From: Escherichia coli
GTDB lineage: Bacteria > Pseudomonadota > Gammaproteobacteria > Enterobacterales > Enterobacteriaceae
Strand: one strand, 5' to 3'
DNA length: 64,000 bases
Assembly: GCF_003334385.1 (NCBI RefSeq)
Contig: NZ_QOWN01000007.1
The translations under genes and the position numbers were made by a program. This document shows positions 22,225 through 23,035 of the stretch, one piece after another. Numbering within the stretch: the first letter of the stretch is position 1; each line of letters opens with the position of its first letter. The notes under the pieces were generated by a model. The model was not told the DNA's origin. It worked only from the letters and a program-made list of their open reading frames with translations, and ran no database searches.

Positions 22225-22662
22225 TTACGAAAGAAGATGGCATTGCGGAATAGCCAGACTTCCTCGTGTTAACGTCCGACAAAATGCGTCATTGACAGCG
22301 GTTTCTCTGGAATGACAGATTTCATTCAGATAATGGATTAATGCTACAGCCCCACCAGCCGGACCAGTCAGCAAACGGGCATTGTGTTCTGCAATCAAAA
22401 TTACCGTCGTTCCCTCAGAATGAGCGAGCCATTCTGGTACGGATATCTCGCTTTCAGCTGCTATCAATAGCAGCACTGAATAATCGCTATACGCATCTGA
22501 TAACGATTGCACAGGCCCACCGTCAAGAGGCTGGAAATCTTGCTGCCAGTCCTCACCAACAAAACAGGTTATTGGCAATATTTCAGCCAGATGTTTCGCC
22601 AGGTCCACATCTCCAGATAAGAGGCAAAAAAGAGCTATCGATTCGGGTTTTATCGTTTTCAT
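22225..22662 (-). CDS. Hypothetical protein (145 aa from ATG 22662 with a GGAGGG SD; the ORF extends to a GTG at 22731), downstream of the cobalamin riboswitch in the cbi-deletion scar
   Basis: ORF only; no family recognised. By synteny it sits where cbiA-cbiP would be in Salmonella but does not look like CbiA or CbiP. Confidence 0.3.
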   Translation of the reverse strand: MKTIKPESIALFCLLSGDVDLAKHLAEILPITCFVGEDWQQDFQPLDGGPVQSLSDAYSDYSVLLLIAAESEISVPEWLAHSEGTTVILIAEHNARLLTGPAGGAVALIHYLNEICHSRETAVNDAFCRTLTRGSLAIPQCHLLS

Positions 22663-22899
22663 GCCCCTCGCCCTCCACTTAATTTCCTGTAATGGCGGTC
22701 TGGTTGATAAGCCATGAAACAAGATTGCCACACCTTGAATGCAGCCCTGGTGCCTGTCGGCACTGCGATGAAAGAACTAAATGATGCCGCCATACCCTGA
22801 TCCTTTCAGGGTGGTAGGGGTATAAAGACGCGCCAGTACTCTACCGGACGCTTCCGGGCAACCCACTTCCCACCGAAGTTGTTGGTATTGACTGACAGA

Positions 22900-23035
22900 C
22901 TGGTCTTCTGGCTTAGCGTCATCCTCACCCGACCTTCCCAATCTCGCGATCAGTGGCATTTTCGGGTTTGTCAGCATTACAGCAGCGGGGGCTGCGAGGG
23001 ATTTTCACCCTCTTCCCAGGCACAAATGTGCCACA
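22900..23035 (-). promoter_or_regulatory. Cobalamin (B12) riboswitch, the cbiA-leader equivalent
   Basis: Minus strand reads GGGAAGAGGGTGAAAATCCCTCGCAGCCCCCGCTGCTGTAATGCTGAC ... GCCACTG ... GGGAAGG; downstream TTCGGTGGGAAGT matches the btuB leader as I recall it. Confidence 0.6.

Follow-up and report, generated by a model that had tools for sequence, protein, structure and literature searches.

Between pocR and cobU, where Salmonella carries the genes cbiA to cbiP, the Escherichia coli DNA analysed here (a stretch of 64,000 nucleotides, hereafter the window) has kept about 1 kb, and a cobalamin (B12) riboswitch still stands in it. The locus raises two connected questions, namely what such a riboswitch controls once the genes behind it are gone, and whether the 145-codon open reading frame downstream of it (hereafter the ORF) is a retained gene or debris of the lost operon. 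An earlier note, made from the sequence of the window, had offered both alternatives for an ORF that it could not identify. The layout of the locus, the origin of its frames, their history in the genus Escherichia and the regulation that they might support are considered in turn below.

Layout of the scar and its riboswitch

The scar is bounded upstream by pocR and downstream by cobU, which is 75% identical to its Salmonella counterpart at the nucleotide level (blastn) and is followed by cobS, cobT and ldtA (Table 1). The whole interval is 100% identical to that of E. coli strain 2018-18.25PC. In the earlier note, about 17 kb of cbiA-cbiP was said to have been reduced to about 1 kb; the remaining length is correct (1,052 bp), while cbiA-cbiP measures 14.1 kb in an intact Salmonella locus (L012), in which pocR and cobU are 14.7 kb apart. 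A size of 17 kb is that of the whole cbiA-cobT operon. The alignment with Salmonella that the note had recommended does map the ends of the scar, since homology stops at cbiA codon 3 and resumes 31 nt before the cobU ATG, within the end of cbiP (blastn). Further into the scar, the cbiP remnant gives a collinear local alignment with the 3′ end of C. koseri cbiP, with a score of 46, computed without the last 35 nt, against a shuffle maximum of 30. The 133 nt that separate the ORF from cobU are cbiP-derived.

Table 1. Features of the pocR-cobU interval and its borders, in order of transcription (positions in the window)
Feature	Positions	Strand	Basis and remarks
pocR (AraC-type regulator of pdu/cob), upstream edge of the scar	23144-24058	-	NF047788 TransRegPocR, 554 bits (cut-off 500); 79.6% nt identity with Salmonella pocR; ~80% vs Salmonella/C. 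koseri (blastn)
pocR-riboswitch spacer, 88 nt	23056-23143	-	81-95% conserved among Escherichia species
Cobalamin riboswitch aptamer	22881-23055	-	Rfam cmscan RF00174, 107.8 bits, E 4.8e-26
Expression platform	22794-22880	-	Hairpin with Shine-Dalgarno directly 5′ of the cbiA AUG
Leader ORF (uORF), 44 codons	22659-22793	-	Starts at the native cbiA AUG (22793), right after the riboswitch
145-codon ORF, CbiG N-terminal remnant	22225-22662	-	~22246-22662 cbiG-derived, rest cbiP
cbiP remnant, last ~155 nt (~codons 452-506)	22092-22245	-	Now ORF tail and pre-cobU spacer
Promoter-like site TTGAGA-16-TATATT	22193-22220	-	Consensus scan 10/12; pattern match only
cobU, first surviving gene of the old operon, downstream edge	21546-22091	-	NF004469, 244.8 bits

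The presence of a B12 riboswitch on the minus strand was confirmed: every sequence string quoted for it in the earlier note is found, and the match to RF00174 (gathering score 31.5) covers the full model, positions 1-189 of 189. The riboswitch lies inside the span 22225-23035 that had been given for the locus, except that the bound at 23035 drops the first 20 nt of the aptamer. The NCBI annotation of the genome (2018-18.25PC) already marks the element. At the orthologous position in five further Escherichia lineages (L003-L006 and L009), RF00174 scores 109-113 bits, and the aptamer is 94-95% identical across Escherichia species with no gaps. Together with its leader it is 82% identical to Salmonella, the alignment running exactly through ATGGCGGCA, the first 9 nt or three codons of cbiA (blastn). 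Position and alignment show the riboswitch to be orthologous to the leader of the cob operon in Salmonella.

The expression platform is predicted to form a hairpin of CCCUGA (22811-22806), an AAGGA loop and UCAGGG (22800-22795), which is present in the centroid fold, and it aligns with the cbiA ribosome-binding-site region of Salmonella and C. koseri. It is the best-conserved segment of the locus, with 94.7% identity between E. coli and E. fergusonii as compared with 78% for pocR, and conservation of riboswitch and platform stands at 87-95% over a divergence that has saturated synonymous sites. The folds of the platform and of the Shine-Dalgarno region of the ORF were not more stable than those of shuffled sequences, and a terminator search returned one weak site only, inside the leader frame and at chance level. 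Upstream of the aptamer, a consensus scan of the 88-nt spacer found no sigma-70-like site. This spacer is much shorter than those of Salmonella and C. koseri (~300-330 nt), and its local alignment with them was no better than with shuffles.

The leader frame and the CbiG-derived ORF

The riboswitch does not head the ORF directly, as the earlier note had it, since a 44-codon frame that the note overlooked intervenes. This leader frame is opened by the start codon of cbiA, and its stop codon TGA overlaps the start of the ORF (ATGA). Its first ~16 residues resemble CbiA, with the pattern MAAxxxxFIxxxTG (MAASFSSFIAVPTGTR vs MAARHHAFILAGTGSG). The frame is open in seven of seven Escherichia species. 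Between its ATG and that of the ORF, six species have exactly 131 nt and E. fergusonii has 130 nt. The ATGA overlap is likewise present in six species; in E. fergusonii, the short frame stops where cbiF natively does, and the 20-nt overlap of cbiF and cbiG is the native one. Openness of the leader frame is only marginally improbable by itself, as it was maintained in all six species in 199 of 5,000 neutral simulations. Little constrains its interior, which is only 42% identical in E. coli and E. fergusonii, and in seven species these 122 nt gave no alignment above shuffles with the 5′ end of cbiA, the 3′ end of cbiF or the cbi debris of E. coli strain 48, described below. The leader frame would be the actual target of the riboswitch, which would gate translation at the old cbiA AUG. 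An upstream frame that ends at a downstream start, in a conserved arrangement, is also what would be expected of translational coupling.

As described in the earlier note, the ORF has a product of 145 aa and a strong Shine-Dalgarno sequence, GGAGG, located 12 nt before the ATG at 22662; native cbiG lacks a Shine-Dalgarno of such strength. The note left the ORF unidentified. It matches the CbiG profile NF004463 (NCBIfam) over profile positions 1-125 of 351 (E 1.6e-19), and blastx aligns it to residues 1-119 of CbiG from C. koseri (46%, E 1e-23) and from Salmonella (43%). These matches identify the ORF as the N-terminal third of CbiG, which has stayed in frame and begins at its native start codon; the outcome that the note had named as contrary to its proposal, a frameshifted piece from within a cbi gene, is not seen. 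After ~138 cbiG-derived codons, the ORF crosses into the 3′ end of cbiP, which supplies its last ~6 codons and its stop in a frame other than that of cbiP. The body of the ORF is indeed neither CbiA nor CbiP, as the note had reported, and only this tail is owed to cbiP.

The domains CbiG_mid and CbiG_C (CobE-like) are absent from the ORF, whereas the full-length CbiGs taken for comparison have 351 aa and carry PF11760, PF11761 and PF01890. A whole-protein CbiG match is not reached (70.3 bits against a curated cut-off of 546 for NF004463), and a Pfam scan of the ORF returned no match, CbiG_N (PF11760) included, even at E<=10. Relative to CbiG, the ORF carries a 7-residue deletion, and the CbiG motifs are degraded, GATGIAVR having become AAESEISV and SGHxGGAN having become TGPAGGAV. 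Because CbiG_mid, the C-domain and the glycine-rich motifs are lost and Pfam CbiG_N is not matched, the product, judged from its sequence, cannot be the CbiG enzyme (cobalt-precorrin-5A hydrolase). An AF2 model shows an alpha/beta fold with a pLDDT of 76 for residues 1-125 and a disordered tail, and the best TM-score and rmsd were obtained with the N-domain of the CbiG homologue PDB 3eeq. However, the AF2 alignment contained true CbiGs, so that this resemblance is weak evidence and adds little; a Foldseek search of the model against PDB gave nothing at E<=0.001.

The NCBI record of the ORF in 2018-18.25PC is WP_000849056.1, a “hypothetical protein” of 145 aa. Elsewhere, PGAP names the ORF variously as “hypothetical”, “CbiG” or (partial) “cobalamin biosynthesis protein”. 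An antisense ORF of 113 aa (22341-22682, plus strand) was also considered and was rejected, as it is broken in all other species.

From these alignments, the scar is best described as the product of two deletions in an Escherichia ancestor, which together would have removed ~13.4 kb of cbi. One would begin at about cbiA codon 16 and end shortly ahead of cbiG, and the other would span cbiG codon ~140 to cbiP codon ~452. Because the interior of the leader frame has no traceable relative, the 5′ junction of the former can be placed no finer than after about codon 16 of cbiA.

Distribution, selection and transcription

The whole scar is present in 644 of 5,426 complete E. coli genomes (~12%), always with pocR and the pdu genes for propanediol use, and a distant-mode blastn search with the scar riboswitch matched only the 646 loci of the pdu type. 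In contrast, the last ~300 bp of the scar are found in 5,398 of the 5,426 genomes, including those that lack pdu. In ~88% of the genomes, the 5′ half of the ORF was lost along with pdu, so that the ORF can be dispensed with where pdu is missing. In these genomes, other deletions or IS or prophage insertions have taken out the pdu side, for example in K-12-like genomes, and in strain ECE218 a pduV′ fragment is fused to the 3′ half of the ORF.

Within the genus, the module made of pocR, riboswitch, short frame and ~145-aa ORF occurs in E. coli, E. whittamii, E. albertii, E. marmotae, E. fergusonii, the “E69” lineage and an E. ruysiae-like lineage. Since it is common to these seven species with the spacing from leader frame to ORF preserved, the scar is dated by sequence comparison to the ancestor of the genus Escherichia. 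A peptide-pattern scan of genome contigs and a word-indexed protein search recovered copies of the Escherichia type only and no intact operon.

The ORF is open in seven of seven Escherichia species and is, among the six frames, the sole one open in all seven. Neutral evolution was simulated on the tree of the ORF itself (0.55 substitutions per site, kappa 4), and 4 of 3,000 runs left all six closer species open. The mean dN/dS of the ORF is 0.38 among six species (Nei-Gojobori) and ~0.33 against E. fergusonii, at a dS of ~1.3, while the same estimator applied to neutral simulations gave 0.73±0.12 and, in 600 runs, never less than 0.416. The constraint is uneven along the protein, as dN/dS is 0.23 for residues 1-68, 0.75 for 69-90, 0.31 for 91-122 and 0.47 for the tail, and dS is normal in the two constrained segments. 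Indels within the ORF are in-frame only, whereas the adjacent spacer has gaps of 1, 7 and 12 nt. Both frames, of 44 and 145 codons, are also intact in six further E. coli-type alleles, five of them from complete genomes and one from the L003 contig (98% identical), so that with the window seven of seven E. coli alleles are open; their polymorphic codons are 9 synonymous and 8 nonsynonymous. The neighbouring genes have dN/dS values of 0.03-0.09 (pocR) and 0.10-0.16 (cobU). Constraint on the ORF is thus genuine, though weak beside that on pocR and cobU.

Neither the accumulating stops and frameshifts nor the near-neutral dN/dS of a decaying pseudogene are seen in the ORF, which looks like a reused fragment under genus-wide purifying selection rather than decaying junk. 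Between the two alternatives of the earlier note, that of a retained riboswitch-regulated gene fits the open frames and the low dN/dS better; the other is right in the literal sense that the ORF is a fusion remnant, but not in calling it decaying.

It could be proposed that the operon head is kept merely to regulate cobUST. However, in E. fergusonii cobUST is absent and ldtA directly follows the ORF, and in E. albertii cobU is fragmented and cobT deleted; in both species riboswitch, hairpin, short frame and ORF are intact. Because the module has thus outlasted cobUST, such regulation is not sufficient to explain the data. The promoter-like site between the ORF and cobU (Table 1) is a possible independent promoter of cobUST, and it sits in the stretch kept in nearly all E. 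coli genomes (5,398 of 5,426).

Transcript levels are available for one pdu-positive strain. In RNA-seq of the adherent strain LF82, LF82_328, annotated “CbiG” and adjoining the pocR gene LF82_329, had RPKM values of 16.7 and 13.0, similar to those of pocR (7.3 and 10.8) and above those of the uninduced pdu genes (PMC4509574). By gene order and annotation LF82_328 corresponds to the ORF, which therefore appears to be transcribed in LF82. The gene is not listed in a separate RNA-seq paper on LF82 and bile salts.

Proposed regulation, alternatives and known systems

The explanation towards which we lean, with somewhat better than even confidence, is that the compacted head of the cob operon expresses a selectively kept CbiG-N-domain protein that is repressed by B12 and translationally coupled to the leader frame. 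The B12 repression, the coupling and the function of the protein are inferred, by analogy with the Salmonella cob system as far as the regulation is concerned. In that system, B12 binding sequesters the ribosome-binding site. Similarly, the AdoCbl riboswitch and the hairpin that can sequester the Shine-Dalgarno would here gate translation at the native cbiA AUG, which would now open a chimeric leader frame of 44 codons ending on the start of the ORF (AUGA). When B12 is scarce, the leader frame would be translated and would deliver ribosomes to the ORF, and transcription could run on into cobUST where these genes are present. When B12 is plentiful, its binding would hide the ribosome-binding site, the leader frame would stay untranslated and coupled initiation at the ORF would fall; the untranslated RNA would be exposed to Rho and to decay, so that read-through into cobUST would fall too. 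The ORF would contribute what was kept of CbiG, the N-terminal alpha/beta domain alone, together with a newly gained GGAGG Shine-Dalgarno. This strong Shine-Dalgarno could also permit some translation of the ORF that escapes control by the riboswitch.

The product of the ORF has probably been taken over for a role linked to B12 or to propanediol. Which role this might be is a matter of speculation; the strict co-occurrence of the ORF with pdu and its presumed control by B12 suggest corrinoid binding or handling, or an accessory function linked to Pdu. A more specific version, in which a genus that has lost B12 synthesis uses a neofunctionalised, B12-repressed CbiG N-domain, for example as a corrinoid-binding or delivery factor for the Pdu microcompartment or in corrinoid salvage, is put forward tentatively and is on balance doubtful. 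If it held, the restriction of the ORF to pdu-positive strains, AIEC such as LF82 among them, would be functionally meaningful.

Other explanations dispense with a functional protein. The frames could be open only so that ribosomes traverse the RNA, which would prevent Rho-dependent polarity and mRNA decay towards cobUST or ldtA, the encoded protein being functionless. Gene order is in keeping with such a translated spacer, since cobUST lie at the distal end of the operon that the riboswitch controls in Salmonella. The leader frame also behaves as one, with an interior that has diverged between E. coli and E. fergusonii at a length constant to within 1 nt, and with an openness that chance could nearly account for. 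Yet the amino-acid constraint on the ORF is concentrated in two segments of normal dS (residues 1-68 and 91-122), the module is intact where cobUST is deleted or dead, and the predicted promoter between the ORF and cobU would serve cobUST in those E. coli (88%) that are without the riboswitch. A translated spacer is a fitting description of the leader frame and not of the ORF, and as an account of the locus we regard it as unlikely. More improbable still, and the least credible of the readings considered, is that the ORF is a neutral leftover open by chance and the riboswitch a fossil. The fusion of gene fragments stripped of CbiG_mid, CbiG_C, the CbiG motifs and any Pfam match would suit such debris, as would the PGAP names “hypothetical protein” and partial “cobalamin biosynthesis protein” and the loss of the ORF from most E. 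coli. However, neutral evolution almost never left six species open in the simulations, E. fergusonii is open as well at a dS above 1, and the observed dN/dS lies below all 600 neutral runs. In addition, the conservation of riboswitch and platform despite synonymous saturation, and a Shine-Dalgarno stronger than that of native cbiG, are not what a fossil would be expected to show.

The RNA itself could also be what is kept. The riboswitch would then serve as a B12-responsive 3′-UTR or attenuator of the pocR mRNA, or as part of a B12-sensing regulatory RNA, and the frames would be secondary. B12 riboswitches control regulatory RNAs of pocR and eut in Listeria and Enterococcus. The 88-nt spacer, in which no promoter was found and which is ~230 nt shorter than in Salmonella, agrees with such a role, and the similar levels of pocR (7.3 and 10.8) and LF82_328 (16.7 and 13.0) in LF82 are compatible with one transcript (PMC4509574). 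However, purifying selection on the amino acids of the ORF is left unexplained, and so is the fact that cbiA start, hairpin and AUGA junction have been kept so exactly. As the main explanation a role of the RNA is judged quite unlikely, although it could coexist with the B12-repressed CbiG-N-domain protein proposed above.

A literature search found no paper that describes the scar or discusses the ORF. The riboswitch is simply orthologous to a well-studied one and in that respect already known. Three points appear to be new, namely that the ORF encodes a CbiG N-domain in frame, the architecture with a leader frame, and genus-wide purifying selection independent of cobUST. If the proposed regulation holds, pdu-positive E. 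coli, including Crohn's-associated AIEC such as LF82, would have a second B12-sensing circuit besides btuB. The locus would also be a natural example of a riboswitch that outlived its pathway and was retargeted, through a remnant leader frame, to a kept fragment of an enzyme. Given the inconsistent annotation at present, the ORF deserves a name of its own.

The scar also bears on the question, reportedly raised by Lawrence and Roth in 1996, of whether the cob/pdu complex was lost by Escherichia and regained by Salmonella. Because a cbi scar is found in every Escherichia species at the chromosomal site that the array occupies in Salmonella, between the same flanking genes, their ancestor would have had the full pdu-cbi-cob array and lost cbi by deletion. 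The scar thus offers direct evidence for an ancestral array in place.

The closest known system is the cob leader of Salmonella enterica, which likewise follows pocR, has an aptamer ~84% identical to that of the scar and the same CCCUGA...UCAGGG hairpin, and leads into the AUGGCGGCA start of cbiA. It differs in what is controlled: no biosynthetic genes follow the scar riboswitch, only the leader frame and a truncated CbiG. In addition, the leader preceding the aptamer is ~230 nt shorter here, and no promoter region of the Salmonella type can be aligned. The other B12 riboswitch of E. coli, that of btuB, also acts on translation initiation. It has a different locus and sequence, and the scar riboswitch is confined to the 12% of E. 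coli with pdu.

A further case is provided by a second pdu island in E. coli strain 48 (L007), in which pocR and a cobalamin riboswitch are followed by decayed cbi fragments and then by an open 144-aa ORF that encodes only the N-terminal part of CbiG. As in E. fergusonii, the native overlap of cbiF and cbiG is kept. The island differs from the scar in that its pocR is 77% identical, its ORF shares 61% identity with CbiG 1-137, and frameshifted debris of cbiA, cbiB and cbiF still takes up ~1.3 kb. Moreover, it is IS-rich and IS-flanked, and a riboswitch-btuB unit follows in place of cobU. Strain 48 is a single lineage, and it is suggestive of a second locus in which this same part of cbiG is kept open while its neighbours decay.

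A promoter-like element and RNA matches in the window

Just 3′ of the stop codon of the ORF, the CbiG N-terminal remnant lying between the cobalamin riboswitch and cobU, the spacer derived from the 3′ end of cbiP carries a promoter-like sequence, TTGAGA-16-TATATT, a candidate cobUST promoter for all E. coli that would be made of former coding sequence. Between pocR and pduF, on the strand opposite to both, Rfam matched the sRNA STnc230, whose position is kept in the other Escherichia loci. The remaining Rfam matches are ordinary enterobacterial features.

Coordinates of features in the window and in the comparison loci
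Feature	Sequence	Position	Strand	Rfam score (bits)
TTGAGA-16-TATATT	window	22193-22220	-	
STnc230	window	24119-24202	+	74.8
STnc240	window	48392-48466	-	68
his operon leader	window	51206-51329	+	131.6
STnc490	window	61505-61628	-	144
Side of the ORF kept after pdu loss	window	22092-22396		
ORF 3′ half and pduV fragment	E. coli ECE218 (L021)	3207-3841		
cobUST remnant	E. albertii (L005)	1097-2390		
ORF-ldtA interval	E. fergusonii (L009)	8471-8698		
Second pdu island	E. coli strain 48 (L007, NZ_CP166879.1)	17860-24331		
Regions compared for pocR and the scar	window	22225-24058		
	E. fergusonii (L009)	6570-8471		

Loss of pdu and of cobinamide-salvage genes

Most E. coli have lost pdu through deletions with endpoints inside the ORF, only the last ~300 bp being kept in 5,398 of the 5,426 genomes. 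In ECE218, the 3′ half of the ORF is adjoined by a pduV fragment, a junction giving rise to a 119-aa “hypothetical protein” found very often in databases, while in K-12-like genomes the remnant is adjoined by an IS4 fragment rather than by pduV. The cobinamide-salvage genes have themselves decayed in two Escherichia species. E. albertii has a fragmented cobU, a deleted cobT and an intact cobS; in E. fergusonii cobUST is absent, and the ORF is followed, after 227 nt, by ldtA.

A second pdu island in E. coli strain 48

Strain 48 carries a second pdu island, flanked by IS66, in which pocR, a cobalamin riboswitch, cbi fragments, a CbiG-N-only ORF and a second cobalamin riboswitch with btuB succeed one another, with iha and espI adjoining. 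The cbiA, cbiB and cbiF fragments are frameshifted and span ~1.3 kb; the CbiG-N-only ORF is open over 144 aa. The island is an independent case of cbi decay sparing the CbiG N-terminus.

Relationships of the pdu locus

A metagenome-assembled contig labelled Citrobacter sp. (L003, DXKH01000123.1) is 98% identical to the window over pocR, the riboswitch and the ORF, whereas true Citrobacter reaches only ~80%; because of this difference, the contig is probably either a mis-binned Escherichia contig or the product of a very recent transfer. The nucleotide identity of pocR between E. coli and E. fergusonii is only 78%, a distance equal to that separating E. coli from Salmonella; over their whole genomes the two species are much more alike. 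In the ORF tree, E. coli falls outside E. marmotae, E. whittamii and the E. ruysiae-like lineage. The pocR distance and the tree may reflect old allelic lineages of the pdu locus or its exchange between species.
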